From positions 53,950 through 117,949 of IMG/VR virus record IMGVR_UViG_3300028888_000073: 64,000 nt of DNA; one strand, given 5' to 3'. A program made the position numbers and the translations under genes. How positions within the stretch are numbered: position 1 is the stretch's first letter; every line of letters starts with the position of its first letter. The notes under the pieces were generated by a model, which saw nothing but the letters and a program-made list of their open reading frames with translations, made no database searches and had not been told where the DNA came from. Positions 9,673-59,043 of this stretch are shown in pieces. The DNA comes from a virus. Taxonomy: Duplodnaviria; Caudoviricetes.

Positions 9673-10053
9673 TTAGTTTGGGGGAGTATCATCATTTTGT
9701 TCAAGATCACCAGTTCCATATATATTTAAGAAATGTGCAAACGGTAGCGGATCATCTACAACATGCTGAAGGAAATACTGTAATACCCACTGCGCTTGCA
9801 ATGCACCACCAATATCACCCTCACAGTCAATGTCACCTCTAAAGAACCAACCGTCATCTGTTGTTTTGTATTCTGTTGATGATCTTACAAAATCTATCAA
9901 TTCATCAATGTTATCGTATCCACCAATAACAATAGCTTCTAGGAATACGGAAAGTAGAATCTGACCATCAAGTGCCTTAATTTCTCCATCACCATCAACG
10001 TCACCTAAAATGCTATACCCGTTGACAACATCAAATCTATATTCACTGCTCAT
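9673..10053 (-). CDS. Two-repeat dockerin type I-like protein without signal peptide
   Basis: GDVDGDGEIKALDGQILL and GDIDCEGDIGGALQAQWVLQYF Ca-loop/helix repeats, with GAGGTG RBS. Confidence 0.7.
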   Translation of the reverse strand: MSSEYRFDVVNGYSILGDVDGDGEIKALDGQILLSVFLEAIVIGGYDNIDELIDFVRSSTEYKTTDDGWFFRGDIDCEGDIGGALQAQWVLQYFLQHVVDDPLPFAHFLNIYGTGDLEQNDDTPPN

Positions 10054-10218
10054 ACATAACACCTCAATCTTTATATATTGTATAGTATAATGTAGTCAAG
10101 TTTTACTGTTTTTGAGATAAAAAATCTTTTCTTATCACATATCATCATTCGCACATATAGCAAAAAAATACACACGCCGAATAATAGCGTGTGCATCTTG
10201 ATATTTATTTTGTTAAAT

Positions 10219-10587
10219 TTATTCTTCTTCGTCATAGCATCCGGTGTTAAATTCATTCATTGCTTTGAAATACGCAATAGGGAGTTGATCATAATACAAT
10301 GTGCCGGAAGCACACTTGAATTCTCCCATCATCGTGTCACAGTCCACTTCATAGTCATCATCATCTCCGATCTTTTTCCGAATATATGCAATATCATTTT
10401 CAGTAAATTCAGGAAGTTTGTCAGATTGATATGCAAGATAAAAATATGTGCCGTTCTTTAGAATTACAAAGTATAACTGCCCAAGATCCATGTCAGTGTC
10501 ATCACACTCACCAATATACACGTAGTTAGGATTTTCATCCATCTTATTCTTGATATACATTACTTCTTTCACAAGTGTATCAAACAT
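10219..10587 (-). CDS. Hypothetical protein
   Basis: ORF track 10219..10605; ATG at 10587 preferred. Confidence 0.7.
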   Translation of the reverse strand: MFDTLVKEVMYIKNKMDENPNYVYIGECDDTDMDLGQLYFVILKNGTYFYLAYQSDKLPEFTENDIAYIRKKIGDDDDYEVDCDTMMGEFKCASGTLYYDQLPIAYFKAMNEFNTGCYDEEE

Positions 10588-10605
10588 GTAAGACCATCCC
10601 TTCAA

Positions 10606-10770
10606 TCAATTCTTCTCAGTTGCAACACAGTTTGCAATTGCATATTCACTTTTCATTAGAATAACTTTGCCGATAGCATCTCGCTCATTTTCGGCTTCAA
10701 CCTCAACCTTAAATCTGTGATTTCCAAACAGGATACAACAGTTATCATACTCAACAATATAAGTTTTCAT
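10606..10770 (-). CDS. Small hypothetical protein (54 aa, below ORF-track cut-off)
   Basis: MKTYIVEYDNCCILFGNHRFKVEVEAENERDAIGK..., with AAGGAG RBS; first gene after promoter copy 2. Confidence 0.65.
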   Translation of the reverse strand: MKTYIVEYDNCCILFGNHRFKVEVEAENERDAIGKVILMKSEYAIANCVATEKN

Positions 10771-10812
10771 AATTAACTCCTTTCAGCATCGACATCACCA
10801 TCTCACAAATAT

Positions 10813-10841
10813 AGTATAACATATTTATGCAGAAATGTCAA
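10813..10841 (-). promoter_or_regulatory. Repeated promoter, copy 2
   Basis: TTGACA-N17-TATACT with TGn. Confidence 0.85.
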
Positions 10842-10907
10842 GTAGTTTCCGGAAAGTTATTGTAGAAGTATTCACATTATCGCATAGATATTTTGTACAA
10901 GATATAT

Positions 10908-10941
10908 AAAAGCCGCTAATCATTATATCGACTAGCGGCTT
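10908..10941 (-). terminator. Intrinsic terminator
   Basis: AGCCGCTA/TAGCGGCT stem followed by a T tract on the minus strand. Confidence 0.6.
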
Positions 10942-10952
10942 CTGATCAAAAC

Positions 10953-11342
10953 TTATTCATCATCGCCGTCAAAGTATCCGGATTCTTCCATTTCATCAAG
11001 AACTTCTGATACTGCCTGTCCAACCAGATAGCATCTGATTGTACAATCCGCGTATTCAGGATCAGTAAGTGCCTTTTTGTAGCTTTCAAGTTCGTCACCA
11101 AAACATTCAAGTGCGTCAACAAGAATGTCAGAATTCATTGCAAGTGCTTCCCGTGCCTTGTATGCATTACAGTAATAAGAACCACTTGCGTTTCCTGTAA
11201 CACTGTCCTCAGTGAAACAATCATCATTCAGTCGTTCTTCCAGACCATCACGATCATCAATCCAATCCTCACGGTCAATGTTGTCCTCGATATACTCCTT
11301 AACGTCAGCTTTAACAGCTTCAAGATAATCATACTTCTGCAT
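10953..11342 (-). CDS. Conserved phage hypothetical protein (SVTGNASGSY motif)
   Basis: 129-aa ORF with strong AAGGAGG RBS; single-gene cassette. Confidence 0.8.
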   Translation of the reverse strand: MQKYDYLEAVKADVKEYIEDNIDREDWIDDRDGLEERLNDDCFTEDSVTGNASGSYYCNAYKAREALAMNSDILVDALECFGDELESYKKALTDPEYADCTIRCYLVGQAVSEVLDEMEESGYFDGDDE

Positions 11343-11398
11343 AATAATTTCCTCCTTTAGTTACGTTTTCACGCTTTTGGAATCTCTCTTACAAATAT

Positions 11399-11427
11399 AG
11401 TATACCATATTTCAAGGCAAATGTCAA
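11399..11427 (-). promoter_or_regulatory. Repeated promoter, copy 3
   Basis: TTGACA-N17-TATACT with TGn; hairpin at 11452-11482 upstream. Confidence 0.85.
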
Positions 11428-11520
11428 GTAGTTTGTAGGAAAATAAAAAAGAAAATCCTACCAAATAATTGATAGGATTTTTGTATATAGTGACAACATG
11501 TTCTTTTTTGAAATGTTTTA

Positions 11521-12465
11521 TTATTTATTCTCTGTATTTTTCTGTGTAAATTTTGGAGTAAATAACTTTTTACCAATATAGATACCATTCATGAAATCAT
11601 TAACAACTTCATCTGTGCATTCAATACCGTCAATAGAACAGAGTGATGTCAGATATTCACCACACGCTTCATTGTATTTAATCTCATTGATAAAATCACA
11701 GAATGCCTGACATTCTTCTCTTGATCTAAATATAATATGCATAAACTTAGGTGTCTTTCTTCCGGAGTAGTATGTTCCGGGTTTAGTTTCAAGTTGAATT
11801 AACTCATTGAAATCTTCTCCGGAGTAATATGTGTGATCAGTAAGTTCGACTCTATCTCCATCTGAACTTGTATCTGTAAAGATTCTTACACCATCACCAA
11901 AGCGATCAACTACCTCATATGTTCCAATCTTTGTTGGTTTATATTGACATACACATTGTTTACATGGGCAGGACTCAGTTAGATGTTTACCTGTAGGGCT
12001 TGTAAATTCGATCTGCCTGTTATTATTACATCTATCACATTTATCAAACATATCGTATACATATTCATTTGTTACAATATAGCCATCTTCAAAGAAGTCT
12101 TTCACAAATCTCTTGAAACTCTTATTCTTTAATGTTTCCATGTTTTCCTTAAACTTTCTTTCAAGGTCTGCAAGCGCGGTCTGATAAGTGTCATACTCAG
12201 CACGGAATTCGCTCAGTTTTCTATTCTCATCCTCTAAGAATTCGACCTTATTTCTGTACTCAGCACGGATGCACTTTTTAAGTGTTTCAACTAATGGCTT
12301 CAATTCTTTTGATCTTAGATACGATGGGTAACAATCCTCATCAAAGAAATCATCAGAATCTTCATCATCATAATCATAGTTATCATCTTCAGGAGTACCT
12401 AATTTATCATAGTCATTTTCAAGCATATGAAACGCCCATGCATCAGCAAGTTCAAAATTATCCAT
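11521..12465 (-). CDS. Hypothetical protein with coiled coil and CxxC...CxC Zn-binding motifs
   Basis: ORF track 11521..12537; GGAGG RBS favours ATG at 12465. Confidence 0.75.
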   Translation of the reverse strand: MDNFELADAWAFHMLENDYDKLGTPEDDNYDYDDEDSDDFFDEDCYPSYLRSKELKPLVETLKKCIRAEYRNKVEFLEDENRKLSEFRAEYDTYQTALADLERKFKENMETLKNKSFKRFVKDFFEDGYIVTNEYVYDMFDKCDRCNNNRQIEFTSPTGKHLTESCPCKQCVCQYKPTKIGTYEVVDRFGDGVRIFTDTSSDGDRVELTDHTYYSGEDFNELIQLETKPGTYYSGRKTPKFMHIIFRSREECQAFCDFINEIKYNEACGEYLTSLCSIDGIECTDEVVNDFMNGIYIGKKLFTPKFTQKNTENK

Positions 12466-12728
12466 TAGTCGCCCCTCCGAACAAAACAGTATACAGGAAC
12501 AGATGTAATATTCTTTGTTTCCGGCGTAATCCACCATGTAGCCAAACTATTACTGCCCTCACAGAATCCAAAATGTGCGAATCTATATTCAGTACAATAT
12601 TCAATATTATCTGTGTTAAGTTCTTTCTTTGCAATCTCCCGTGCTTGCACATTATCAAACTTTCTTGCGTTTACAGCAACAATATCTCTACCTGTTTCAT
12701 CTTCAAACATATCATAAATAAAAGCCAT
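12465..12728 (-). CDS. Hypothetical protein
   Basis: GGAGG RBS; stop overlaps the next start. Confidence 0.7.
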   Translation of the reverse strand: MAFIYDMFEDETGRDIVAVNARKFDNVQAREIAKKELNTDNIEYCTEYRFAHFGFCEGSNSLATWWITPETKNITSVPVYCFVRRGD

Positions 12729-12745
12729 AGTTATTCTTCCTCCAA

Positions 12746-13021
12746 TTAACAATAAAATTCTTCTTCACGGTCAAACTCAGACTTTTCAGTTTTCATGCAG
12801 TTTGGCATGAAGTCTGTAAGTTCTGTCTCAATAGTTCTACCATCTTGCTTTGCAATTCTTTCATTTTCTTTCCATTCACTCTCAGTGTACTGAAACGCCC
12901 ACTCTCTGCCGAATAGCTTAAACATCTTACTACGTGCATCATCATAATCTGTTCCCTCGATAACAACGTAATGACCACCATACTTGTGCGCAACGCCAAA
13001 TGTAAAATAATAACGCTCCAT
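12746..13021 (-). CDS. Conserved phage hypothetical protein (YFTFG...WAFQY)
   Basis: 91-aa ORF with RBS. Confidence 0.75.
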   Translation of the reverse strand: MERYYFTFGVAHKYGGHYVVIEGTDYDDARSKMFKLFGREWAFQYTESEWKENERIAKQDGRTIETELTDFMPNCMKTEKSEFDREEEFYC

Positions 13022-13039
13022 TTATAATTTCCTCCAAGT

Positions 13040-13462
13040 TTATTTTTTATATTTTTTACAATCCTTACATCTAGGAAAGTTATCTGGACAAGCCTGTAAA
13101 TCTGAACAAAGTTTTCTGTAATATATAAATCCATTCTTATGTTTCATAACACTGACAATCCACGGATCATCACTGCACAACCCACCATACGAACTAAGAT
13201 ATCCTCTAGCAATACGCTTATCCCCGATATCTACACAGAATTCATATGGAGTATCAGGTGTCAATGACTTGTAAAAATTTTCAAGTTTATGCCATCCGGC
13301 AGTATTAGACTTAGTAGTGATCTTCTTTGTACTAACTGTAGTATTATGTTTACTTACTTTACTGTTAGTTGATTTCTTTTGTGATTGTGCTGTTTGTTTA
13401 TTTAGTTTCTTTGTGGTATCTGAATTCTTGTTTGAACTTCCAACATCAAATAAAGGTTTCAT
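13040..13462 (-). CDS. Hypothetical protein
   Basis: 140 aa; ATGA overlap with the upstream gene. Confidence 0.7.
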   Translation of the reverse strand: MKPLFDVGSSNKNSDTTKKLNKQTAQSQKKSTNSKVSKHNTTVSTKKITTKSNTAGWHKLENFYKSLTPDTPYEFCVDIGDKRIARGYLSSYGGLCSDDPWIVSVMKHKNGFIYYRKLCSDLQACPDNFPRCKDCKKYKK

Positions 13463-13695
13463 TTCATAATACCTCTCCGTCCGTGTCGTTTATCCTTCTG
13501 CCGCTTTGCGTGAAATTTAGAAATCACATCACTTCTATAGTTGTCATATAGTTGAAAAGTATCCACAACATCATATGATCTATTTCGTTCCTCTACATAC
13601 TTAGCCCATTTCTCACATGATGTAGCACATCCTGCACAACGATCAGCGCATCCAATACCAGTTGACTTGTCAAAGCAAGGAGTTTTCCTATCCAT
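13459..13695 (-). CDS. Small Cys-rich phage protein
   Basis: PC...CxDRxxGCxxSCEKW motif. Confidence 0.7.
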   Translation of the reverse strand: MDRKTPCFDKSTGIGCADRCAGCATSCEKWAKYVEERNRSYDVVDTFQLYDNYRSDVISKFHAKRQKDKRHGRRGIMK

Positions 13696-13704
13696 ATAAG
13701 CACC

Positions 13705-15747
13705 TCAGAACAGAGACTTTCTAGTTTTAGTCTTACTCGGATTTTGTTTTGGTTGTTTATCAATGTCAAGCAAATTAACTAATGATCTAGTTTTTAACAT
13801 ATTCATAAACATTTCCTCAGTTATAATCCTAACATTCAACTCTTTTGCCTTTTTGTTTTTAGCTGAATTACTATTAATGTCATTGTTAATTAAATGTGTT
13901 GTTTCAGAAGAAACAGAACTGCTAACCGTTCCGCCGTTACGTTTGATTGTGTCAATGATTTCATCACGGCTACAAGAAAGTTTACCAGTTATTACAAACT
14001 TCATTCCAGTAAGCAATGAACTCTCTTTCACTGTTTCACTGAAATCAAGAATGTCACACAGTTTCATATATTCTGCTACATTGTCAGCATCAGAAAACCA
14101 ATCATCAAGTGATTTTGCAACGGCATCTCCTAGTCCTTTTATCGTAGAACAAAGAAGATAAAAGTCTACTCCAAGAAGATTATTAGGATTGTTGTCAAGA
14201 TTATTAGCTATGATCTCAGCAACAGACTTACCAATTCCGTCAATATTCAAAGCACCTAGCAATCTACTTAGTGTTGTGTGTTTCGATCTTTCAATAGATT
14301 CTTTAAGTACATCAACAGATTTCTTACCAAATCCGGAAAGACTGCAAAGACTGTCGTAATGTGTGTCAACAAATTTATAGATATCAGAATATTTTTTAAT
14401 ATAATTAAGTCTTACCAATTTATCAATCGTTTTCTCAGATAGACCATCAATATTCATTCCGTGCTTTGATGTAAATGAAGCAAACTTCTTGATCATCTTT
14501 CCAACGCAATGTTCGTTTGTACATTTAAGAACAACAACACCGTCATTTGTAACTAATTCAGTCTCAGATGAACAGTATGGACATTGCTTCGGAACAAACT
14601 GCATATATTCATCTGCATTGGAATGCTTTGTAAGATTATAACGTACCTGCGGAATGATCTCATTCGCTTTATACACTTCAATATAATCATCCTTTGCAAG
14701 ATTAAGCTGTGCAAGAATTGAGATATTATGAACACTTGCTCGTGTAACAGTAGTTCCGTCAATGTCAACCGCATCAAATACTGCCGTAGGAGTAAGTACA
14801 CCAGTTTTACCAATTGTAAAATCAATATCATTTAGTGTTGTATTGTATCCGTCATCATAAAACTTATAGGCAAGTCCATTTCTATAATGATGTGCTGTAC
14901 TTCCTAAAGATTCACCATAAGCAATATCATCATACATTGCAACAATTCCATCAATAGGAACATAATCATTATCAGCTTTCACCTTTAGCATTTGAATAGC
15001 ATCTTTAATACTTTTTAATGCATTTGTTAAATATGGAATATATGTCACAACATTAAATCCGAGTTCTCTTGCGGCTTCAAGACCGGAAGTCATACAACCA
15101 TTAGTCGATATATCGTTTGCATTCCATACAACAAATCTAACAAACCGCTTCGCACATATTCCGCTATTCAACTGTCTAACTGATCCGCTTGCAAGATTTC
15201 TAGGATTCTTATAAGGTTCTTCCAGTGTTGAATTGATGTATACAAAATCATCCTTATGAATAATAGCTTCTCCGGTAATACGTATTGTTCCTTTAACACG
15301 TATCTTAGATGGAACACCTATGAAAGTTCTAGCGTTGTGTGTAATATCTTCTCCAGTATATCCATCGCCGCGAGTCTCCGCACGTACCAGTCTACCATCT
15401 ACATATGTCAACTGACATGTAAGACCGTCTAGCTTGTGCATCAGTACAATGTCTTTACCACGTCTAAACTTTTCAACCGCTTCAATATCCTTTGCTTTAT
15501 CAAGTGAAAGTAACGGTTTATAGTGTTCAACTTTTTCCAAATTACTAAGTACAGTATAACCAACATTCTGTGTCGGAGAATTTGAAAGTATAATTCCTGT
15601 TTCATCTTCAAGACGTTTCAGGTCATCAAATAGCTTATCATACTTTTCATCCGGAATAGGTGAATTGTTTTCAACATAGTAAAAATATCTGCATTTATTC
15701 AGATATTCTACAAGATCATTAATTTGTTGTTGCTTTGTCATATTCAT
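13705..15747 (-). CDS. ligA: NAD-dependent DNA ligase
   Basis: YY...DxxYD, KLDG adenylation motif, TRGDG, NPRNLASG, Zn finger, HhH and BRCT (FVITG...THLI). Start moved from 15891 to ATG at 15747. Confidence 0.95.
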   Translation of the reverse strand: MNMTKQQQINDLVEYLNKCRYFYYVENNSPIPDEKYDKLFDDLKRLEDETGIILSNSPTQNVGYTVLSNLEKVEHYKPLLSLDKAKDIEAVEKFRRGKDIVLMHKLDGLTCQLTYVDGRLVRAETRGDGYTGEDITHNARTFIGVPSKIRVKGTIRITGEAIIHKDDFVYINSTLEEPYKNPRNLASGSVRQLNSGICAKRFVRFVVWNANDISTNGCMTSGLEAARELGFNVVTYIPYLTNALKSIKDAIQMLKVKADNDYVPIDGIVAMYDDIAYGESLGSTAHHYRNGLAYKFYDDGYNTTLNDIDFTIGKTGVLTPTAVFDAVDIDGTTVTRASVHNISILAQLNLAKDDYIEVYKANEIIPQVRYNLTKHSNADEYMQFVPKQCPYCSSETELVTNDGVVVLKCTNEHCVGKMIKKFASFTSKHGMNIDGLSEKTIDKLVRLNYIKKYSDIYKFVDTHYDSLCSLSGFGKKSVDVLKESIERSKHTTLSRLLGALNIDGIGKSVAEIIANNLDNNPNNLLGVDFYLLCSTIKGLGDAVAKSLDDWFSDADNVAEYMKLCDILDFSETVKESSLLTGMKFVITGKLSCSRDEIIDTIKRNGGTVSSSVSSETTHLINNDINSNSAKNKKAKELNVRIITEEMFMNMLKTRSLVNLLDIDKQPKQNPSKTKTRKSLF

Positions 15748-16156
15748 GCTCTCTTTCAAATAATTTCTTATAACATTTAGGTCCGAATCCAACCTCAATA
15801 GAAGTTTCATCAATAAGCTGTCTGCCGCAGTGAGCACAGCGCCCAGTATGCATAATACGATACTCGTCACTGTCTCTGTTGCGGATAGCATCTAATATTG
15901 TCTGAATCTGAATATCAGTTTCATTGATGCCGTACTTATCATTATGCTTGTATGTAAGAACATTACCACGAATCTTAAAGTATCCACAGTAAATATTCTT
16001 ATTCTCTTTCTTGATGTAAAGCTGATATATTTTGTTATTATCAACTCCGTTATCTTTCCTGAAAATCTTGTATGCAAATCTTACAAAGTCAGTTTCAATT
16101 ATGAACGTGCAATTTCCGGCAAACATAAATCTGATTTTATTCCTAATGATCCCCAA
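15719..16156 (-). CDS. DUF6011-like Zn-ribbon protein
   Basis: GRCAHCGRQLIDETSIEVGFGPKC; GGAGGTG RBS favours TTG at 16156. Confidence 0.7.
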   Translation of the reverse strand: MGIIRNKIRFMFAGNCTFIIETDFVRFAYKIFRKDNGVDNNKIYQLYIKKENKNIYCGYFKIRGNVLTYKHNDKYGINETDIQIQTILDAIRNRDSDEYRIMHTGRCAHCGRQLIDETSIEVGFGPKCYKKLFEREHEYDKATTN

Positions 16157-16192
16157 ATAAAACACCTCCTGACAATGCAATCTTACAATTAT

Positions 16193-16221
16193 AGTATAAC
16201 ATATTTGTAAGAAATTGTCAA
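16193..16221 (-). promoter_or_regulatory. Repeated promoter, copy 4
   Basis: TTGACA-N17-TATACT with TGn. Confidence 0.85.
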
Positions 16222-16244
16222 GAGGGTTTTCAAATTTTCATATT

Positions 16245-16520
16245 TTAACTATTTGTATTATCTTCATATGTTCCGTCAAGCTGTGCCTTAATTCCATTCA
16301 CAATATCGTCAGTGTCATAATTATCAAAATCACTCTTATCAATTGTTGCGTATGAATCATCACCGTCTGTAATAAAAACAGTTTTATCTGAATCATCATC
16401 ACACCAATACTTAATACCATCTTCACTGCCGCTAAACTTATAGTTTCCGTTATCAAATTGATCTTTGCAGTATGCAACTATATTGTTTATATTATCACCA
16501 ATAGATTCAAACAGTCTCAT
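16245..16520 (-). CDS. Acidic hypothetical protein with MRLFES leader
   Basis: AGGTGG RBS before ATG at 16520. Confidence 0.7.
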   Translation of the reverse strand: MRLFESIGDNINNIVAYCKDQFDNGNYKFSGSEDGIKYWCDDDSDKTVFITDGDDSYATIDKSDFDNYDTDDIVNGIKAQLDGTYEDNTNS

Positions 16521-16533
16521 ATTAACCACCTTT

Positions 16534-16863
16534 TCAATAATCTTCTTCACCGTAATCACAAATCGGACAGCTTCCAGAATCATCTAGCGTAGTGTCACAC
16601 TCCGGACACGTATCAATTTCTGTACGCTCAATATCATCAAAATCCTGTTCCCCATCCATATCAATTATAAAATCATCAAATATAAGTATATCACTTCTAT
16701 TCATATTGAGGTCGTTTGCGATCCGGTGTCGGAAGTTGTTACGCGCCTGACTTAAAGATACTGCAAGTGTTTCATATGGTGGGTTCAAATCTCTAAGTAA
16801 ACCGTTATCAATACCGAACTTATCAAGTCTGTATCTATGTCTGTTATCCTCTAGTATGATCAT
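16534..16863 (-). CDS. Zn-ribbon protein with MIILED leader
   Basis: C-terminal CPEC...CPIC; GAGGTG RBS. Confidence 0.7.
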   Translation of the reverse strand: MIILEDNRHRYRLDKFGIDNGLLRDLNPPYETLAVSLSQARNNFRHRIANDLNMNRSDILIFDDFIIDMDGEQDFDDIERTEIDTCPECDTTLDDSGSCPICDYGEEDY

Positions 16864-16875
16864 ATGAAGCACCTC

Positions 16876-25420: not shown

Positions 25421-25449
25421 AGTATAGCACATTTCAAGGAAATTGTCAA
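25421..25449 (-). promoter_or_regulatory. Repeated promoter, copy 5
   Basis: TTGACA-N17-TATACT with TGn; ATATGCACAGAAAT inverted repeat at 25465-25514. Confidence 0.85.
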
Positions 25450-25533: not shown

Positions 25534-25839
25534 TTAAGTTTCTTTATTGGAAATAAAGTCCTTATATCCGGATACATCATTGCTGTTATTCTCTACAAGA
25601 GATTCAGCATAATATGATAGAAGCATCTGAGCATCAAGTGCTGTAATTTTTCCGTCACTGTCATGATCAAGTGCTTGATACGTTTCAAGTTCACCATGTA
25701 GATTGTTAATCTGTCCTTCAAGGTCGTGGATATACTGCCATATTTCTGGTTCAAGTGCGGTAACAGTTTCAGTATTAAAAGTTAGACAATTAACACTAAT
25801 AATAGCAGAGCATACAAAAGCGAAAAACTTCTTTTTCAT
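25534..25839 (-). CDS. Secreted protein with coiled coil and a single dockerin-like repeat
   Basis: MKKK plus hydrophobic signal peptide (VTA cleavage); DHDSDGKITALDAQMLLSYY. Confidence 0.7.
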   Translation of the reverse strand: MKKKFFAFVCSAIISVNCLTFNTETVTALEPEIWQYIHDLEGQINNLHGELETYQALDHDSDGKITALDAQMLLSYYAESLVENNSNDVSGYKDFISNKET

Positions 25840-25856: not shown

Positions 25857-26759
25857 TTAAAATGTAAAATTAACTGCATCATCTCTGTTAATGAAGAAGT
25901 GAATACCTCTTGCACATTCTTCAAATCTATTCTCACAGAAATTAGGTTCAGTTACGATCTGCCATTTCCGATATTTGAATTTAGAATCCCACATACTTTC
26001 AACAACCTTATCAACAGAGTTCCCGTCAAGGTCTTGAATATCTTCAACATATGCCTTGTCAGCGCGACACTTACTCCTACCTGCATTTGACCGCCGTGCA
26101 TCTTCCGGAATCCTAAGTTTTACAATATAATACTCATCATCATCACATTTATCATGACTGATCTTAGCTTTTTTCCATCCAATAAAACTACCTGTATCCG
26201 GAACATGGCTTGAAACATTTAGATTTGTCTCAACAAAAGCGGCTCTTGTAAAATCACAATTTTCTTGACAATCTATATCAAACTCACAGTTTGAAAATGT
26301 GGAAGACTGGAATGTTGAATTATAGAGTCTGAAATATTCAAAATTCGTATATGCACAGTTAATGTTGTTCAAATTTACAAAATCAAACCAACCACAATCA
26401 AATTGACAGTATGCAAAATTACTATTATGTAAATCAGTATACGTGAAACTAGGACTTGTAAATTTACAGTTAGTGAACATCATATAAGACATTCCACACA
26501 TAATGAATTCACAAGTGTAGAACTCGATGTCCTCAAATTCACGGCTTTCAAATACACAGCCCTTGAATGAAATATATTTAAGTTCTTCCGGAAAGACAAT
26601 ATCCGATGGAATGAAATAACCACAAATATAAATTAGTGAATCATTTAATGCACCTTCATTATCTTTTATAAGATTATCAAACTCATCCTGTGTTATAGTC
26701 TTATATTTTAAGCTAGTTGTGTACTTAGCGTCATCATTGATCATATACAATACCTCCAA
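25857..26759 (-). CDS. Pentapeptide-repeat protein with C-terminal DUF5758-like domain
   Basis: FxxCxF periodicity; GWKK...LRIPEDA...KCRAD...GIHFF. Confidence 0.8.
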   Translation of the reverse strand: MEVLYMINDDAKYTTSLKYKTITQDEFDNLIKDNEGALNDSLIYICGYFIPSDIVFPEELKYISFKGCVFESREFEDIEFYTCEFIMCGMSYMMFTNCKFTSPSFTYTDLHNSNFAYCQFDCGWFDFVNLNNINCAYTNFEYFRLYNSTFQSSTFSNCEFDIDCQENCDFTRAAFVETNLNVSSHVPDTGSFIGWKKAKISHDKCDDDEYYIVKLRIPEDARRSNAGRSKCRADKAYVEDIQDLDGNSVDKVVESMWDSKFKYRKWQIVTEPNFCENRFEECARGIHFFINRDDAVNFTF

Positions 26760-26771: not shown

Positions 26772-27797
26772 TCAATATGTCGGTCTAAAAGTCGGCTCGA
26801 TATCATGAATCGTATCATCATCTTTATATCTACTATTCTTCACTTCATAGCTATCCAAAATAAACGCTTTTCTGCATCTGATCTTGCCATATCCAACCAT
26901 AATAATATCATCAAGACAGATTTTTGCAGTTAAGAAAACAGAACTTGCGGCAGATTCATTTCTTATCCAATAATTAGCGTGTGAGAAATGAAGTCCGCTC
27001 GCACACGGCTTATCAGATTCATCACAATCATTAACAACTGCATACTCACCAACACAATACTTGAAATTTTTATCATAGAAAGAGGTCATGTCTTTTTGTA
27101 CTTGTTTATATGCAATTACATAATACTTTCCGTCAGCTTCTTTGAACGGGATTAGTCCAGTTTGAAGTCTAATTGATTCAAGAATATCTTTAGACATATC
27201 GGTACAGGATAGAACAACTGTTTTTTCTAGTTTTACACATCCTTTAACAACGCCGTAAACATCAGATTGGCATATACGGATACAGTCATCACAGTTTCCA
27301 TCTACCGAAGCATCTTTAATGTCAGAACGAGTAATATACGCATTTGATACATCAGACCTAATAATATCAGATGTGTCTATCATACATGTATTTCGTAGAT
27401 CACTATTACAAATAGCTGAATCTGAAATCGTACCATGACAAATAATTAATGATTCTTTTATTGCAGTATCACCTCTAATTGATAGATATCTGTCAAGTTC
27501 TGGTGCATCTGTATTGTCAATAGTTGATGATAGTACAACTGCATTACCTAAAATTACAACTCTTCCAAGTACAACAGAATTTTTATCAATCCAACACCCT
27601 TTACCGTCACCAGAATCATGAAGAATATTACCATATTCTACATACCCACCAAGATCACCCTCATCAACAATTCCTACTCTGGTTGCAAAAGTTTTCTTTG
27701 CACGGATTCTGTATACCCGAACACCATGAATAACTTTACTGTCATCCGGAAGAATCTCATACTTGCTACCATTATAAACAGGAACATTATCACTCAT
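26772..27797 (-). CDS. Beta-helix repeat protein with GDLGGYVE N-domain and a related C-terminal domain
   Basis: YRIRA...GDLGGYVE...CW, solenoid repeats, then FKY.VG...CASGLHF...KIRC. Confidence 0.65.
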   Translation of the reverse strand: MSDNVPVYNGSKYEILPDDSKVIHGVRVYRIRAKKTFATRVGIVDEGDLGGYVEYGNILHDSGDGKGCWIDKNSVVLGRVVILGNAVVLSSTIDNTDAPELDRYLSIRGDTAIKESLIICHGTISDSAICNSDLRNTCMIDTSDIIRSDVSNAYITRSDIKDASVDGNCDDCIRICQSDVYGVVKGCVKLEKTVVLSCTDMSKDILESIRLQTGLIPFKEADGKYYVIAYKQVQKDMTSFYDKNFKYCVGEYAVVNDCDESDKPCASGLHFSHANYWIRNESAASSVFLTAKICLDDIIMVGYGKIRCRKAFILDSYEVKNSRYKDDDTIHDIEPTFRPTY

Positions 27798-30001: not shown

Positions 30002-30030
30002 AGTATAGCATATTCATTGAAAAATGTCAA
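30002..30030 (-). promoter_or_regulatory. Repeated promoter, copy 6
   Basis: TTGACA-N17-TATACT with TGn; hairpin AAAAACCTTAC/GTAAGGTTTTT at about 30053-30084. Confidence 0.85.
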
Positions 30031-39833: not shown

Positions 39834-41033
39834 TTATGCAGTTTCCAGTGCCTTTACCTTTACTCTAGTAAGTTCAGTCTGCTTAACTCCGTTAAATTCA
39901 GTGTGTCCCTTAATTGTGCCAGTGATCTCAAACCTGTCAGTGACATAATCGCTAGTGTAAAAGTTACCAGATGTCTTCCAAGTGAAGATGTTTCCGTCAG
40001 CATCAGTAAACTTATACATTCTAACAAATGCGCCGTAGTCATTAGTCCAAGATGTAATCAGTTCACATACAGCATTTACTGTGATCTTCTGTCCGACAGT
40101 TCCTACGAACTTTGTCTTTTCAGCTTCTTCATTTTTCTTGTTGTCAGCGTCAATGCGTTCATTGATCTTCTTATAGAGAACATAAGCATAAGCAACGATT
40201 CCATCAGCATAGGTAATTACCTGTGCGCCTTCAAGTCTCAGCTTTGTGTTCCATACGAAGTTGTCAACATACTTGTCATCCAGTTCCTTGAAGAACTTGA
40301 TTACTGTCTTAGCAGTCTCAATGTACTTATCTTCAATAGGAGCGTTTTTGCGATAACCATTGTCAGCAACTTCCTTTGTCGGGTTCTTTCCGTCAGCCTT
40401 TGCATATCCATAAGTCTCAATAGCCTTAATGCAGTATGCCAGATACTTTTCAACGTCATAGCAAGCAGTGTACTTACCGAAATCAGCTTCCATGATGAAC
40501 GGTTCTTTGTTGTCAATCAGAATGTCATAAACATCCTTGTATCCGGCAATCGTGGTTGCCAGTTCATATCCGATATAATCTTTCAGGCAAGTAGTTCCTA
40601 CCATCTTTTCTTCACCAGTGACATTATCCGTAAGGACAACACACTTTGCTCTGCGATGCTTAGTTCCGCAGTGGTCACACCGCAGGTCAGCATGACGATA
40701 CTTAGCAAGGAGTTCTTCATCAATCTTGTCACAGAACGGATAAACGCTGTTGACAGGTTCACCCTTTTCATTGGTAGCCGCTTTGAGAACAGCGGTCAGA
40801 CGGAAGTCGCCAACCTTGTAGTCATCAAAGTCAATGTCATACTCTACACATTCAACTCTCTCAGTTCCGATCTTGACCTGACACTTGTTAATCTCATCAA
40901 CGCCGTACACGTTGACTTCCTGAACGAACTCACGAACAACTTCAAATTTCTTATTACCAGTGATCTTCTTGAACAGTCTCTTGATCTTCTTTTCCAGTTC
41001 TTCAAACTTGACCTTCGTTGTTGTGTATCTCAT
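39834..41033 (-). CDS. Phage protein with Zn-binding motif and C-terminal OB-fold
   Basis: CDHC...VGTTC; C-terminal FVGTVG...WKTS...GTIKGH.EF.GVKQTELTR; strongly biased codons. Confidence 0.75.
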   Translation of the reverse strand: MRYTTTKVKFEELEKKIKRLFKKITGNKKFEVVREFVQEVNVYGVDEINKCQVKIGTERVECVEYDIDFDDYKVGDFRLTAVLKAATNEKGEPVNSVYPFCDKIDEELLAKYRHADLRCDHCGTKHRRAKCVVLTDNVTGEEKMVGTTCLKDYIGYELATTIAGYKDVYDILIDNKEPFIMEADFGKYTACYDVEKYLAYCIKAIETYGYAKADGKNPTKEVADNGYRKNAPIEDKYIETAKTVIKFFKELDDKYVDNFVWNTKLRLEGAQVITYADGIVAYAYVLYKKINERIDADNKKNEEAEKTKFVGTVGQKITVNAVCELITSWTNDYGAFVRMYKFTDADGNIFTWKTSGNFYTSDYVTDRFEITGTIKGHTEFNGVKQTELTRVKVKALETA

Positions 41034-41078
41034 ATTGTACCTCACTTTCGTACATACCATACTCTCCCTTACAAATAT

Positions 41079-41107
41079 AGTATAGCATATTTTGAGGAAA
41101 ATGTCAA
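41079..41107 (-). promoter_or_regulatory. Repeated promoter, copy 9
   Basis: TTGACA-N17-TATACT with TGn. Confidence 0.85.
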
Positions 41108-41130
41108 GTAGTTTCTGGAAAATTGTTTAG

Positions 41131-51588: not shown

Positions 51589-51615
51589 GCAGAATTAGAA
51601 AATATCTATATTTAA

Positions 51616-52044
51616 TTAATTAGTTCCAGTGCTACCAAAACCGCCGCGATCAACGCCATCAAGAGATTCAACTTGTTCAAACTCTACAGGCGGCTGAATT
51701 TTATTTAATCTGAATTGACAAATTCTGTCATTCTTTTTAATCTCTGTATTACGTGTAGCATATACAGGAAGAAACCATTGATCGTTATCACCGCTGTAAG
51801 AATTATCAATAACAGCAAATGAATTAGTCTGAACAATTCCATAATGCTTAAATGTACTTGATCTAGGAACAATGTTAGCTTCATACCCATCAGGAAGTTG
51901 CATTGCAACTCCTAGCGGGATTAGAGTAGACTCTCCTTTGTACAGCTTTACATCTTCTGCACATCGCAAGTCAATCCAATCACCATTTGTGATAGGTGCA
52001 ATCTTATCAATATCGGTAAAGTATTTGATTTTAATTTTATTCAT
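51616..52044 (-). CDS. dut: Trimeric dUTPase
   Basis: [21 protein letters not shown] and RGGFGSTG motifs. Confidence 0.95.
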
Positions 52045-53560: not shown

Positions 53561-54058
53561 TTAGGATATAATCTTTGCGTACTGATTATCAGATGAAAGA
53601 TATACTCCCAACACATCATCAAAGTGCTTTTTCTGATCCGGAATAAATCTACCAAATTTGATTATGATGTTTTCAAATTCTTTAATGGAATCTAATCTTG
53701 ATTTACTGAATCCTGATTCAGTGAGTTCTGTTTCAGTATATCCAGTATATATGATGATTTCATCTTTAATGTCATACTTATTCCGCGCAGTATCTATAAA
53801 ACTATACAGTTCATCGAACGTGTCAAACGGCTCTAGTCCACCGATAACAATTGATTCAGTAATATCATTATCAATGTACCGCTTGCATATATCATCATCA
53901 CTGATAGAAATATTTGTGGCATTTGCAAGTTCTGAATTCTGGCACACACATTTTCCACATTCAGCATCACACTTAAATGAGCACTTTGAAGTTGCAATGA
54001 ACATGCTTGCTTTTCTGTAATTTACAAAATCTTCATCAATTATTCCTTTTACATTCAA
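53561..54058 (-). CDS. nrdG: Anaerobic ribonucleotide reductase activase
   Basis: Cys cluster CSFKC...CQN, GGLEPF, IYTGY and SxNQ motifs; overlaps nrdD. Confidence 0.85.
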   Translation of the reverse strand: MNVKGIIDEDFVNYRKASMFIATSKCSFKCDAECGKCVCQNSELANATNISISDDDICKRYIDNDITESIVIGGLEPFDTFDELYSFIDTARNKYDIKDEIIIYTGYTETELTESGFSKSRLDSIKEFENIIIKFGRFIPDQKKHFDDVLGVYLSSDNQYAKIIS

Positions 54059-56949
54059 ACCAAGTCACCCTTGCTCTCGGCAAACGCATACCATCTTCTA
54101 GCGGTAAACTCCTTAAACCTATCCTTAGAGTATGATTTACTAGGTGTTAAGAATCCAACAATTCTTTGATATGTGTCAAACACAGGCTCTCCACACTCAG
54201 GACACGTAGTAGTGCCAACAAAGCCGTGATGGTTCTTACAAACATTGATCTTAGTATTAAATGCAAAATACATTACGCCGGACTTAGCAATCTTATTGAG
54301 CATCTTCCATGCAACTTCTGTATTCGGGAAATTGCTTTCAAGATTAATATGTGCGATTGCTCCGCCGCCGCAACGCTTATCAAGAATTGAAGATAGTCTA
54401 AGTTTTTCCTGAATAGTACATTTTGCAGTAAGCGGTATCCATTGATTTGAATAAATAAATTTATCAGAATCAGGATTGAACAGCTTATTATCCTTTTGAC
54501 AGAGAACAACTGCGGCTCTTTCGGCAGGAACAGATTCAATGTTGAATGAATATTTATCCGTAAAGTTATCCTTTACATCGTTAATCGTATCAAATATTCT
54601 ATTTGCAAAATCAACGCCTTTATCTGTGTAATACACGTTACCAAACTCATCTGTTCTAGTATATCCCATAGCTTCAATCACTTCAAACAGACCAAGAATA
54701 CCAACTGTGCAATACTGTTTTGCAAGTTCGATACCGCCGTCCTGATAGTTAGGTAGCCATCCCTTTTCAATATTTCTTGAAATGATATGACGTACTCTAT
54801 CAAGAACTTTACAACAAAGTGTTGTGCGATCTTTGAGCAGTTCAAGGTACGATTCCTCTGAATCTGTTTCATAAAAGATTCTCATAAGGTTTATCGTATT
54901 CACCTTTACTGATCCAATTGACAGCGCAGTTCCCCCGATTGAGTTGATAAATGCGTCTAATTTTGTTGTATCAGAAAGAAGTCGGCAGTTGTGAGAAATG
55001 ATACCGTTAGGAAGTGTGAAGTATGGCTCATCCTCATTGCTCATTTCAAAACAATACACATATACATCATTATAATGTTCAATTGGTTCAACAGATACAA
55101 CCTTAACCGGGAATGTACCTTTTTTGTTCTTATGATTATTATTAATTAAACGTATAGAATACATAGTGTGATCTTCTTCTTTTTTACCAACTGTATTAAT
55201 TTTACTGGTCTTTCCGAGTGATGTGATCAAGCATTCAATCTGACGTACCAATTTTGATGATGTTGTATGTACGACTTTTGAATCGTTCCAATCAACTGTA
55301 TAAAATCCATTAAGAATTCCATTTCTGAAATCTGCACTTTGTAGCAAGCAATCAATATTAAGTTCTCTATCATAGCAATAGTTGCCAGAAACCCACTTGC
55401 TGATAAAATCAAATACATCATTACTTACAATACTTGCAGTATAAGCGAAACTGCACGATGTATCAATTACACATTCTGCATCGGTATCAATCGACTTAAT
55501 AGCGTCTTTTATTGTTTCAATAGCTGATTTATAATTTTTCGGATTAAGTGAAATTCTTACAACTTGTCTGTCTACATCAAAATTTCCTGATTCAATGCAC
55601 ATTCCTACAAGGAAACCTTGTGCATACGTCAAACCGGAATCACACTCACTTACTGATTCAAGAACATCGCAGTTAGAGATTAGATAATCCTCTGTTGTAA
55701 TATCACTTACTTTTTTATCTCCACTCAATGTAGGGAAAATGTGGTTATCTGTAACATACAACTCTTTTTTATTTGATGTGACAATCTTGTACATCTTTCT
55801 TTTAGGAAGTCTAATAATCCTTCCGTCAACCCAATGTCCTTTATGGAAAATCTTGAAATAATCTTTCTTAGATTCATACAACTCTTCAAACGACATATAA
55901 TTAACGCCGTTAGATGATTTTGTCAAACACATCTGTTTACCGGAGAAACAACAATTACTGAGGACTCCTACATTATCACTAATAAAGAAATTACTATCAT
56001 TCCATTTTACATTGTGATCTGAACACCATCTAGCAAAATCTTCATCAACAAATTTACCGTCCTTGTACAGTAAGCTATATGTTAAAACAGGGTGTGTGAA
56101 CATATTACTGCTTCTGATAGCTGACACAACTTCCATGAATACCTTTTCAACTTCAATAATTTCATCTACGTAATCAATTGCAAAAGTACCATCAGGAAAT
56201 TCAACGCCGCCGAACAGTTCTTCAATATAGCATCTGTCAAAGATTGATATGTTAGTGAACGAACTCTGATCTACTCTTAGGAATGGTTGATTTAGTCTGT
56301 ATATAAGTTTTTGTAGGCATTGACGTAAGTAATAATCTTTATCCTTTATATAATAACCAGTTTCACAATCTGATTTCCAGAAATAGAAACTCCAAATAAG
56401 GATATTCGGAAGCCCTACTGCGCCGCTTGATCTATTGCACATGAACGAAACATATTCAATAACATCATCAAGGAATGTCGTAAGATGCTTTGGAGGTTCA
56501 TTGTTATAATTAGCCAAAAAGAATAAACCCTCTTTAGCCAATCTTGTAAGGTCATATGCATAACAATACGGGACTTGTGAAGAAGACGGAGCATCGTGAA
56601 GATAGAATGCGCCGGTGTATTCGCAAGTTATCCATTCGTTAGCAACTTGATATCCATACTTCTTGTGAAGTTCATAGAATATTTTATTAAATGATGAAAG
56701 TTTATCATGTGGTTTGTACTTTTCATTCTTAATTGTTGCAATGTCTTTATGACTTACGGATGCATTCGGATCAATTGTAACATCACCGATTTTCTTATTA
56801 GTGTCGCGCTCCATTGCATTCAGGAAATCTGAAAAGTTCATTTGAGAATCATGGAATCCGTTCAATATTTGAAAATCCTCTCCGTAATTCTCTTTTAATG
56901 CATTCAACGATCTTGTAAAACTTAAACCTGTTTCAATATTAACATTCAT
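54055..56949 (-). CDS. nrdD: Class III ribonucleotide reductase with a cis-intein
   Basis: YLHD, YC, SPFTN-like SSFTN, PAE, GGxxxH, Zn site and glycyl-radical RIVGF motif. Confidence 0.95.
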   Translation of the reverse strand: MNVNIETGLSFTRSLNALKENYGEDFQILNGFHDSQMNFSDFLNAMERDTNKKIGDVTIDPNASVSHKDIATIKNEKYKPHDKLSSFNKIFYELHKKYGYQVANEWITCEYTGAFYLHDAPSSSQVPYCYAYDLTRLAKEGLFFLANYNNEPPKHLTTFLDDVIEYVSFMCNRSSGAVGLPNILIWSFYFWKSDCETGYYIKDKDYYLRQCLQKLIYRLNQPFLRVDQSSFTNISIFDRCYIEELFGGVEFPDGTFAIDYVDEIIEVEKVFMEVVSAIRSSNMFTHPVLTYSLLYKDGKFVDEDFARWCSDHNVKWNDSNFFISDNVGVLSNCCFSGKQMCLTKSSNGVNYMSFEELYESKKDYFKIFHKGHWVDGRIIRLPKRKMYKIVTSNKKELYVTDNHIFPTLSGDKKVSDITTEDYLISNCDVLESVSECDSGLTYAQGFLVGMCIESGNFDVDRQVVRISLNPKNYKSAIETIKDAIKSIDTDAECVIDTSCSFAYTASIVSNDVFDFISKWVSGNYCYDRELNIDCLLQSADFRNGILNGFYTVDWNDSKVVHTTSSKLVRQIECLITSLGKTSKINTVGKKEEDHTMYSIRLINNNHKNKKGTFPVKVVSVEPIEHYNDVYVYCFEMSNEDEPYFTLPNGIISHNCRLLSDTTKLDAFINSIGGTALSIGSVKVNTINLMRIFYETDSEESYLELLKDRTTLCCKVLDRVRHIISRNIEKGWLPNYQDGGIELAKQYCTVGILGLFEVIEAMGYTRTDEFGNVYYTDKGVDFANRIFDTINDVKDNFTDKYSFNIESVPAERAAVVLCQKDNKLFNPDSDKFIYSNQWIPLTAKCTIQEKLRLSSILDKRCGGGAIAHINLESNFPNTEVAWKMLNKIAKSGVMYFAFNTKINVCKNHHGFVGTTTCPECGEPVFDTYQRIVGFLTPSKSYSKDRFKEFTARRWYAFAESKGDLV
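54988..55950 (-). mobile_element. 321-aa intein in NrdD with degenerate LAGLIDADG domain
   Basis: SNC|CFSG...VTDNH...VYCFEM...FTLPNGIISHN|CRL. Confidence 0.9.
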
Positions 56950-56968
56950 AAAAAATCACCCACGTCAT

Positions 56969-57199
56969 TTAATTTTCAATATATTTATTTACATATTTTA
57001 CTGCATCCTTATAGGTAAGATAGTTAATTGATCCGCCGTAAATCGAAAGTACCGGAACTTCACTAAATCCTAGACTTTTGATTTTTTCAACATCATTGCA
57101 AATCTCATATGATAATGTAGACTTTTCAAGTTTCTTAGCAAGTACCTGACACTTTGGACAGCCTGTGCTATAAAGAACAGCATCGACCATATTACACAA
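56969..57199 (-). CDS. Glutaredoxin/NrdH-like redoxin
   Basis: LYSTGCPKC...VPVL; immediately upstream of nrdD. Confidence 0.8.
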   Translation of the reverse strand: MCNMVDAVLYSTGCPKCQVLAKKLEKSTLSYEICNDVEKIKSLGFSEVPVLSIYGGSINYLTYKDAVKYVNKYIEN

Positions 57200-57205
57200 C
57201 CCCTT

Positions 57206-57787
57206 TTAATTATTTTTATTTTCAGAAGCATCACGCATAATATCTGATACCTCTTTCACAACAATGTCCATATCTCTATTCGCGTTTATTGTGATCATCT
57301 CAATATCACATTCCTCATTATGACAATAATTCCATACAATCTTATGTACGCAGTTTTCAAGGTCTGATTCTTCATCTTTGTAAATTTTATTGAGTATTGT
57401 TGTATCACAATCTCCACGCTTACGCATATTGTCTATACGTGTGCGTATATTCGCTCCGAAATATATAACTATAATCTGTATTGATCTACCTAGTGTACTG
57501 ACAACATCCTCTAATCCTTTTCCGTCCATAACGAATATATCAGAGGATTCTAGCTGATCTATAGTCGTACAATACCTATAATCACCGATAACTGTTTCTG
57601 CCAATTTATTAGGCATGTCGGCATAATTTGGATCGGATACGAAAATATGAGATTCATCAATGTCATCTTTTCTAGGTTTTGTTGTGTATGATCTTGCTAC
57701 ACTATATCCGCCGACTGTTTCTAGTATGTTAGCCACAGCACACTTCCCAGATCCGGAATATCCGGTGAAAATGTATAACCTATTCAA
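57206..57787 (-). CDS. Guanylate kinase-like protein
   Basis: GYSGSGK, SYTTKPR, HIFV and RGD motifs. Confidence 0.8.
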   Translation of the reverse strand: MNRLYIFTGYSGSGKCAVANILETVGGYSVARSYTTKPRKDDIDESHIFVSDPNYADMPNKLAETVIGDYRYCTTIDQLESSDIFVMDGKGLEDVVSTLGRSIQIIVIYFGANIRTRIDNMRKRGDCDTTILNKIYKDEESDLENCVHKIVWNYCHNEECDIEMITINANRDMDIVVKEVSDIMRDASENKNN

Positions 57788-57997
57788 ATAATCACTCCCT
57801 CATATTCATGTGGTAAACCTTAATGTTGATAACAATAGATTATATATCATATCGAATTTCTATTTATTTTCAACAAACACATCGAATTGTTAATTACAAC
57901 AAATATCTGTTGAAATGTTTATGTAAGTTTTTTACAAACAATTAAAGAATTTACACCATATTGTTCGGAAACATAAACCGATACACAATATATTGTG

Positions 57998-58150
57998 TTA
58001 TGAAATATCTCCGCTGTCATCATCACTGTCATCATCGTATCTTTTATTGTTCTTAGAATTGCATTGTATATACACACTAACTGTATCAAGTATAAATTTT
58101 GAAACTATAACAATTGATATTGCTGTTACAAGAAATCTCCAAAAATCCAT
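57998..58150 (-). CDS. Small membrane protein
   Basis: AAGGAG RBS, one TM helix and acidic tail; resembles 27801..27962. Confidence 0.55.
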   Translation of the reverse strand: MDFWRFLVTAISIVIVSKFILDTVSVYIQCNSKNNKRYDDDSDDDSGDIS

Positions 58151-58183
58151 AATGGCAACACTCTCCTTATATGTGTTATATAT

Positions 58184-58212
58184 AGTATAGCACATTTATT
58201 TGTAGATGTCAA
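58184..58212 (-). promoter_or_regulatory. Repeated promoter, copy 14
   Basis: TTGACA-N17-TATACT with TGn; hairpin at 58228-58253. Confidence 0.8.
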
Positions 58213-58284
58213 TAGGATATACAGAAAAAGTGGTAACAAGATTATTACCACTTATTTCAGTATATTTATTCATTGCCTATAGCA

Positions 58285-59043
58285 TCAATCACTGTTTTGA
58301 ATAATTTCATCCCATGCTGTCGGTGTATCAAGTACCGTATTATACAGGAAGTATGTAAGAATATACTGTGCATCAACGGAATTGATTTCACCGTTATTGT
58401 CAATATCGGCTGACGGAGTATTACTAACTCTTTCAAGTTCTGCTTCTAGTTCAGCAATACGTGCATCCTTGTCAATAGGCGGATCACCAAATGGAATTGT
58501 AATTTCTGTACCGAAAATTGTTATTGACTGATCAGTATCCAAATAAGGTTCTTTTACATACAAGTCAAATGACATTATTGTACTACCAAGTGCTGAATCT
58601 GCGCTATGCGGAGTAATAACAGAGTAAACAGTGTGATTATTTGTATACGATACTGTGTATTTAGAATTAAAACGAGTGGTGAAGCTAGACCGTCCATAAG
58701 CCGCACACTCACCGACACTGGCGATCATCAAATCATCAAAAACAATATCACCAATTGATCCAATCGTCATGTTTCGTTTTGAGTCAATACATTGAATATC
58801 AATATGTATCTTACCACTATTGAACGCAACGATATTAGTACAAAGTGTGCATATAGCTCCAACATCGTTATTAGTTCCGACATCGTTATATATAGATGTT
58901 CTATATATACGTGTCTCTGGTTCTTCATATGAATATTTAGTAATATTGCTTGCATAACTCTTTGTATACACTCGATGCAATGTAGCAAAACTCAAAGCCA
59001 TCACACACGCACAAAGTCCGGCTGTAAATTTCATGAATTTCAT
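58285..59043 (-). CDS. Secreted beta-rich protein with coiled coil and C-terminal dockerin-like repeat
   Basis: N-terminal signal peptide; KDARIAELEAEL; ADIDNNGEINSVDAQYILTYF...WDEII. Confidence 0.75.
   Translation of the reverse strand: MKFMKFTAGLCACVMALSFATLHRVYTKSYASNITKYSYEEPETRIYRTSIYNDVGTNNDVGAICTLCTNIVAFNSGKIHIDIQCIDSKRNMTIGSIGDIVFDDLMIASVGECAAYGRSSFTTRFNSKYTVSYTNNHTVYSVITPHSADSALGSTIMSFDLYVKEPYLDTDQSITIFGTEITIPFGDPPIDKDARIAELEAELERVSNTPSADIDNNGEINSVDAQYILTYFLYNTVLDTPTAWDEIIQNSD

Follow-up and report, generated by a model that had tools for sequence, protein, structure and literature searches.

Single-repeat dockerin modules in putatively exported proteins of a rumen jumbo phage and their possible docking on ScaE-type cohesins

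Introduction

Why should a phage encode proteins with dockerin-type calcium loops, and what could such proteins do at the surface of an infected cell? The question is raised by three genes in a 64,000-nucleotide stretch of viral DNA (the window), which forms the final 64 kb of the 117,949-b record IMGVR_UViG_3300028888_000073 of the IMG/VR virus database (CheckV completeness ~52%). The encoded proteins are designated here A (9673..10053), B (25534..25839) and C (58285..59043); all three genes are located on the minus strand. The original prediction saw in them a possible cellulosome-hijacking or receptor-masking system, in which B and C act as secreted half dockerins and A is perhaps displayed on the virion. 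The reading favoured here is that B and C are exported and dock via their single-repeat dockerins on ScaE-type cohesins of the infected Ruminococcus, possibly as coiled-coil pairs, and that they would in this way fill or decorate the places where the cellulosome and CttA are normally held. Judged from sequence and by analogy with a solved complex, this proposal has about an even chance of being correct. The case for it is drawn from the structure of the genes, their homologies, the architecture of the protein family, the setting of the promoters and a lineage signal of the host.

Half dockerins as such are already known, and functional single-repeat modules exist in Ruminococcus flavefaciens. 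The dockerin groups of this species were defined in PMC2930009. Strain FD-1 possesses five group-2 dockerins, each built from one calcium loop, one helix that contacts the cohesin and a further helix at the C-terminus (Duarte et al., 2025, PMC12270676). Their partner is the cohesin of ScaE, a scaffoldin anchored by sortase, and proteins that carry them are in this way brought to the cell surface; the crystal structure shows a single ScaE cohesin occupied by two antiparallel group-2 dockerins (PMC12270676). According to the authors, these five proteins of one strain are the sole known functional, naturally truncated dockerins (PMC12270676). In the literature searched, the new elements are the occurrence of the module in a phage, its cargo-free form B and a wider family that combines a coiled coil with a half dockerin. 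As to phage-encoded dockerins, this literature mentions them only briefly, for viruses of alkane-oxidising cultures (PMC13452462), and does not report any for Ruminococcus phages.

Three genes with a dockerin-type calcium loop

All three open reading frames (ORFs) hold up as real genes with good ribosome-binding sites, which are strong in B and C. A strict calcium-loop pattern applied in six frames matched at A, B and C only, both in the window and in the whole record. In residue shuffles the same pattern occurred 0.013 times on average and at most once, compared with the three matches observed. B (101 aa) consists of a predicted signal peptide (residues 1-28), a coiled coil (30-57) and a single-repeat dockerin with tail (58-101). 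C (252 aa) is composed of a predicted signal peptide, a beta-sandwich N-terminal domain (N-domain), a short coiled coil and a single-repeat dockerin followed by a C-terminal tail. Signal peptides were judged from the sequence together with a hydropathy script: The N-termini of B and C are basic and contain a hydrophobic core of ~17 residues with small residues at -3/-1. A (126 aa, pI 4.05) has nothing of this kind. In these respects, the layout originally proposed for B and C, signal peptide, short coiled coil and single repeat, was borne out by the sequence and hydropathy reading, as was the lack of a signal peptide in A.

A check with the Pfam model Dockerin_1 (PF00404, curated cut-off 22.9 bits) gave a divided answer. 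B passes with 30.4 bits, whereas A (15.0 bits) and C (16.2 bits) fall below the cut-off. EF-hand models stay below their own thresholds on B (EF-hand_6 13.6 bits, cut-off 25; EF-hand_5 11.6 bits, cut-off 25.9). A search of PHROGs yielded no family for A, B or C.

Protein C and its family

The dockerin assignment of C comes from its family. When a profile of C and eight relatives was compared with the PDB, the best matches of all solved structures were dockerins of R. flavefaciens, namely that of ScaH (8AJY_B, E 3.3e-12), one of group 2 (9GVB_B, E 4e-7) and the CttA X-dockerin (4IU2, E 1e-5). Dockerins of other species followed at ~3e-3 and calmodulin at 0.19 or worse. This speaks for the original assignment to the dockerin type rather than to generic EF-hand proteins.

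The protein starts with a signal peptide or signal anchor (residues 1-31, 58951..59043) that has a basic N-terminus and a hydrophobic core (hydropathy 2.04). The N-domain follows (residues 40-193, 58465..58926), a beta-sandwich of a small unnamed family according to profile search and AlphaFold2 (AF2) model. It leads into a coiled-coil linker (residues 190-207, 58423..58476) recognizable by its 3-4 hydrophobic spacing, which comprises two heptads in this phage and is longer in relatives. The single-repeat dockerin (58288..58407) was identified by pattern match and family profile; it includes the calcium loop (58372..58407), a helix and a putative short C-terminal helix. The putative ligands are D213, D215, N217, E219 via its backbone, and D224, in one repeat only. 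The AF2 model is of moderate quality, with a predicted local distance difference test score (pLDDT) of ~60-85 in the strands of the N-domain. A Foldseek search of the PDB with this model retrieved nothing at E<=0.001.

Only 45 clusters among 1.84 billion representatives are found with the N-domain profile. Nearly all members of this family begin with a signal peptide, and in the commonest layout a coiled coil and a single repeat follow the N-domain. Among 37 scanned members, 19 match Pfam Dockerin_1 at E<=0.01 (best 2.9e-14), and many match coiled-coil families, the coiled coil varying in length. Exceptions to the layout are nine members in which a complete two-repeat dockerin takes the position of the single repeat, and two with a coiled coil only. 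The single-repeat module, usually preceded by a coiled coil, is thus a feature of a family of ~45 protein clusters, several of them on phage contigs.

One relative is encoded by R. flavefaciens FD-1 itself (P0032; GCA_000174895.1, ACOK01000094.1). C and P0032 share 37% identity over 202 aa (BLASTP, E 3e-32), and P0032 has the architecture of C with a single-repeat dockerin of the G-R type. It is probably the group-2 protein with a "cohesin-like module" known from the literature. In its surroundings (locus L043 of ACOK01000094.1, 8001-13782), genes for a 906-aa protein with a group-4 dockerin and for a Big_2 protein with another dockerin type are located. The cluster adjoins serine resolvase, NERD and Uma2 genes and may therefore be on a mobile element.

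Might the N-domain of C be a cohesin? In size and layout, C resembles adaptor scaffoldins such as ScaC, which are composed of signal peptide, cohesin and dockerin; it differs from them in its coiled coil and its one repeat. About 13 of the best 50 VIA rows obtained with the low-confidence N-domain model are cohesins (Z 5.2-6.4), whose fold is a nine-stranded jelly roll, amid other sandwiches, and a weak language-model lead ties the domain to cohesins, too. All rows remain below the noise guide of Z 8. The candidate was rejected: Pfam Cohesin (PF00963) matches nothing in the record at E<=1 and none of the 37 family members, and comparison by hhalign with eight FD-1 cohesins and two others returned a probability of 0.4-0.5%, which again separates C from the adaptor scaffoldins.

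A different view of C is that the beta-sandwich is the working part, adhesin-like or ligand-binding, and the dockerin a mere anchor. B and C would then be host-derived accessory genes that alter adhesion, with no exclusion of phages. The FD-1 chromosome, where the same architecture stands beside other dockerin-bearing surface proteins, fits this view, and so do C-family clusters on contigs of at least 400 kb, which are probably bacterial, as well as the weak structural resemblance of the N-domain to adhesins, pilins and cohesins (Z 5-6.7). The phylogenetic distribution, however, points elsewhere. Two samples were used here and below: the 161 genomes of the group around FD-1, termed FD-1's genus, and 399 evenly sampled Clostridia. 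The N-domain occurs in one of the 161 genomes, that of FD-1, and in none of the 399, whereas several homologues of C lie on phage-like contigs or an IMG/VR contig. A pattern search for the family found no member in genome contigs; one further contig with a member was found in IMG/VR, and none among deposited phages. Furthermore, B lacks a cargo domain and is still conserved among related phages (79-96% identity). Therefore, an adhesin-like role of C with a passive dockerin is considered unlikely.

Protein B, the module alone

Behind its signal peptide, B has no domain other than the coiled coil and the dockerin; its mature length is 73 residues. The coiled coil shows a clean 3-4 hydrophobic spacing. 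The calcium loop (25633..25668) was found by pattern match and is invariant in all six family members. Its predicted ligands are D58, D60, D62, K64 via its backbone, and D69, again in one repeat only. In the relatives of related phages, loop, helix and tail are unchanged and the coiled coil varies.

The connection between B and C was obtained by profile comparison. B aligns with the C-terminal module of the C family, comprising coiled coil, repeat and tail, with an hhalign probability of 96.8% (E 2.3e-10), and it matches the C-family member P0047 over 57 aa with 35% identity (BLASTP, E 4e-11). In terms of sequence, B corresponds to this C-terminal module standing alone. The tie of B to the group-4 and RfDoc2 dockerins runs only through this family. 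One jumbo phage thus carries two differing versions of the module.

Directly upstream of B, two genes encode a pentapeptide-repeat protein with a DUF5758 domain and a DUF5758/DUF7666-like protein (25857..26759 and 26772..27797, minus strand). Both are syntenic in the related 158.6-kb contig.

Comparison with known dockerins

How closely do the phage modules resemble the dockerins that bind ScaE? The group-2 arrangement, with calcium ligands at N, N+2, N+4, N+6 and N+11 in the C-terminus of a secreted protein, is apparent in the sequences of both B and C. Positions 1, 3, 5 and 12 of the loop are Asp or Asn, and at the contact positions 8, 17 and 20 the residues Ile, Leu and Tyr/Phe, respectively, are retained. 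The C family was found to be homologous to RfDoc2 and to group-4 dockerins in their C-terminal half. Calcium loop, helix and C-terminal location in a predicted secreted protein are thus shared with RfDoc2 of the RfDoc2-ScaE complex (9GVB). RfDoc2 also has a short extra C-terminal helix; a candidate counterpart is seen in the model of C at a low confidence (pLDDT ~55-68). Apart from being phage-encoded, the modules differ from group 2 in that B is the module alone behind signal peptide and coiled coil, and in a pair of residues in the loop that is considered below.

The group-4 X-dockerins of ScaB, CttA and ScaH (4IU2, 8AJY) have the same sequence type of helix and tail and presumably the same target cohesin. 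They anchor the cellulosome to ScaE, contain two repeats, often with an X module, and are structural parts of the host, whereas the phage proteins would compete with them.

Several observations weigh against docking of B and C on ScaE-type cohesins and are taken together here. At positions 10/11 of the loop, B has A-L and C has S-V, whereas FD-1 group-2 and group-4 dockerins have G-R, a pair also present in P0032 (FD-1), P0034, P0050 and P0055. In the solved complex, Arg41 provides the only salt bridge of Table 2, and its mutation lowered the affinity (PMC12270676). The phage modules are therefore group-2-like and not strict members of the group. ScaE-type cohesins themselves are 29-60% identical between species, so the differing pair may fit the cohesin of another species. 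Second, Duarte et al. (PMC12270676) observed no binding by the C-terminal half of the ScaH dockerin on its own, and a lone repeat is therefore not automatically functional. Third, a narrow profile of B retrieves only calmodulin-type proteins from the PDB, at a non-significant E>0.1. In the AF2 model of C, the helices 222-237 and 244-247 are predicted with low confidence (pLDDT ~55-68). Finally, a search of the 161 Ruminococcus genomes with window positions 1-20000 revealed no match to clustered regularly interspaced short palindromic repeats (CRISPR) or prophages, and the host is deduced indirectly (see below).

Some of these points would also fit a reading in which B and C do not bind cohesins at all and are instead secreted calcium-binding coiled-coil proteins with a dockerin-resembling loop, active in another extracellular or membrane process. 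The B profile with its EF-hand matches, the sub-threshold Pfam scores of A and C taken alone and the recognition pair unlike that of known ScaE binders can all be read in this way. Loop position 12 argues against it. EF-hands usually have Glu at this position; B and C have Asp, as dockerins do. Moreover, some C-family members have full two-repeat dockerins at the very same place, and EF-hand models of Pfam reach 11-14 bits where 25 or more are required. Such a non-cohesin function is regarded as distinctly unlikely.

The phage and its probable host

Which bacterium would offer the cohesin? The virus is a jumbo phage with a contractile tail and a Gram-positive host. Rumen metagenome contigs of 158.6, 216.8 and 218.5 kb carry A, B and C in identical or nearly identical form; the phage genome is therefore estimated at ~217 kb, and ERZ27257205 and ERZ28653755 are full contigs of this length. 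The minus strand carries almost all genes, and the GC content is 34.9%. The remainder of the record, downstream of A, encodes endolysin, head protease, major head protein and tail sheath. When 11 kb of window sequence were compared with deposited phages by Megablast, no match was obtained; the closest isolate match of the DNA ligase is Clostridium phage c-st with 41% identity.

Two mutually independent signals indicate that the host belongs to the genus of R. flavefaciens. The first is the dockerin type. The dockerin part of the C profile matches all 161 genomes of FD-1's genus, with dozens of matches each and typical best E values of 1e-9 to 1e-12, compared with nine of the 399 Clostridia (best 7e-6). 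The second is the endolysin (record 50277-51701, minus strand), in which domain matches to GH25, CHAP and PG_binding_1 were found. Its best match anywhere searched is FD-1, with 58% identity in the GH25 part (E 8e-74), and matches at E<=1e-60 are present in ~72 of the 161 genus genomes and in none of the 399 Clostridia. Hence, the earlier suggestion that the motifs point to the host agrees with a second, independent signal. Host matching by CRISPR spacers, which had been proposed as a check, was unsuccessful: window positions 1-20000 gave short noisy matches in the 161 genomes, and the four that were inspected lie outside CRISPR arrays. The candidate genus does possess the presumed target, since a ScaE-type cohesin was found in 139 of the 161 genomes. 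A testable host assignment is thereby available for an uncultured phage of ~217 kb.

Promoters and probable timing of expression

B and C belong to transcription units with a common promoter motif. TTGACA, a spacer and TG-n-TATAMT occur in 13 perfect copies compared with 0.03 expected, all on the minus strand and between 10813 and 62874. The spacer is T-rich and ends with AAATrTG, followed by TATACT. Examples are the copies at 10813-10841, 25421-25449, 58184-58212 and 62846-62874. From the consensus form, the motif probably represents early promoters read by the host polymerase. The copy at 62846..62874 heads the unit of which C is the last gene; a terminator-like hairpin (58228..58253) directly follows C, and then the next promoter. 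Similarly, the copy at 30002..30030 heads the unit that ends with B, after which the next copy (25421..25449) is found. Both versions of the module are therefore located under host-type promoters.

No copy is present below 10813, in the late structural block. The last early unit is closed by a terminator-like hairpin (10165..10199, minus strand) just upstream of A. Since A follows this hairpin and a different promoter-like site, it heads the late block.

Proposed role of B and C at the cell surface

If docking of B and C on ScaE-type cohesins is correct, the following course of events can be envisaged. Expression of B and C would be driven by host-type promoters that are probably early, and the Sec machinery would carry both proteins out of the cell, where the module would bind calcium and dock on the wall-anchored ScaE-type cohesin. 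By analogy with the solved complex, two modules might share one cohesin, and the coiled coil would supply the pair. Since group-2 single-repeat dockerins function with two per cohesin, such pairing is plausible, yet it is not needed for function. B, which has no cargo domain, would simply fill anchoring sites, and C would display its beta-sandwich domain there. The net effect would be competition with the host ligands of ScaE, i.e. the X-dockerins of ScaB, CttA and ScaH, and an altered surface of the infected cell.

The purpose may be exclusion of other phages, protection of progeny, detachment of the cell or display of the C domain. The favoured use is to block a site on the surface, either to keep further phages off or to prevent progeny from being lost; this is the least certain step of the scheme. 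A phage receptor-masking protein of this kind is the Llp lipoprotein of T5, which blocks FhuA. B and C would resemble it as small, early, exported proteins proposed to occupy a host surface site; there is no sequence relation, and a cohesin as receptor of the phage described here is a conjecture. Should B and C bind the ScaE-type anchor, phages could disturb the cellulosome and the substrate hold of the main fibre-degrading bacterium of the rumen. Mature B would then be a natural minimal cohesin ligand, usable as a probe or affinity tag.

Protein A, a late protein with dockerin-like features

A is a late, cytoplasmic, acidic protein whose status as a dockerin is weak. As originally stated, its start codon is the ATG at 10053, with GAGGTG in front of it, and all eight homologues examined begin at the same ATG; the GTG at 10062 falls within that ribosome-binding site. 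Heptad stretches were not found. Two repeats had been predicted, and the first holds: It has a good F-hand, with the loop at 9967..10002 found by pattern match. The second (~9772..9837, from the family alignment), ~35 residues away, is degenerate. Its loop comprises 13 residues, one more than canonical, and carries Gln, invariant across the family, in place of the bidentate Asp. With one fitting and one failing repeat and a Pfam score below the cut-off, A does not conform to a canonical two-repeat type I dockerin. Its family (58-97% identity) is of equal length, acidic and helix-rich, and has no signal peptide. A search of IMG/VR detected no member of this family.

Is A displayed on the virion and does it attach the phage to a host cohesin? 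This would be independent of what B and C do. The position of A at the head of the late block, after the terminator and with its own promoter-like site, is compatible with such a role. A border with the tail module had also been claimed and applies loosely: the near downstream genes encode a protein with a borderline tail-tip domain and an Ig/DUF6273 fibre-like protein. In the ESM Atlas, 22 of 30 feature neighbours of A are Dockerin_1 clusters, and a structure search gave a template modelling (TM) score of 0.67 to a dockerin protein. Against this stands a profile search of the PDB, in which the A family matched dockerins only, weakly and in the first repeat alone (best E 1.4e-3). The ligands of the first loop are lost in one homologue, and the second loop, as described, is overlong and without its bidentate acid. 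There is no match to A at E<=1e-5, dockerins included, in the 161 Ruminococcus genomes, the AF2 model is unusable (pLDDT 44), and nothing ties A to the particle. An attachment function of A is therefore doubtful.

Even less probable is a combined scheme, in which A on the virion attaches to the cellulosome anchor and the early exported B and C cap the same ScaE-type cohesins in pairs. If true, later phages would be shut out, progeny would be kept off debris and the infected cell would be loosened from the cellulosome.

IS607-like insertions are present in related jumbo-phage contigs. In L008 (8068-9853), a resolvase and TnpB are encoded immediately upstream of the A homologue, and the corresponding site in the window has no insertion; L004 contains a lone TnpB at another place (854-2167). 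Regarding the host as seen via this mobile element, no close copy of the L008 TnpB was found, the best match being 43% identical in a metagenome-assembled genome of a rumen Erysipelotrichaceae.

Further observations

In the ESM Atlas, an all-viral cluster of stand-alone dockerin/EF-hand proteins (~91 aa, 71 members) was encountered, as were clusters that fuse N-acetylmuramoyl-L-alanine amidase to dockerin. Phage dockerins may therefore be commoner than the literature suggests.

Some other genes of the record deserve mention. Two ORFs of ~400 aa each (window 39834..41060, minus strand, and 39903..41111, plus strand) overlap almost completely in antisense orientation, neither with a Pfam match. 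In the late region (record 46908-48173, minus strand), a PemK/MazF-like toxin domain scoring above the cut-off (31.9 bits) was found in a protein of 421 aa. The gene for the anaerobic ribonucleotide reductase NrdD (964 aa, window 54055..56949, minus strand) seems to be interrupted by an intein: On neighbouring contigs, a 964-aa gene at the NrdD position displays the Pfam order NRDD, Intein_splicing (weak) and NRDD.

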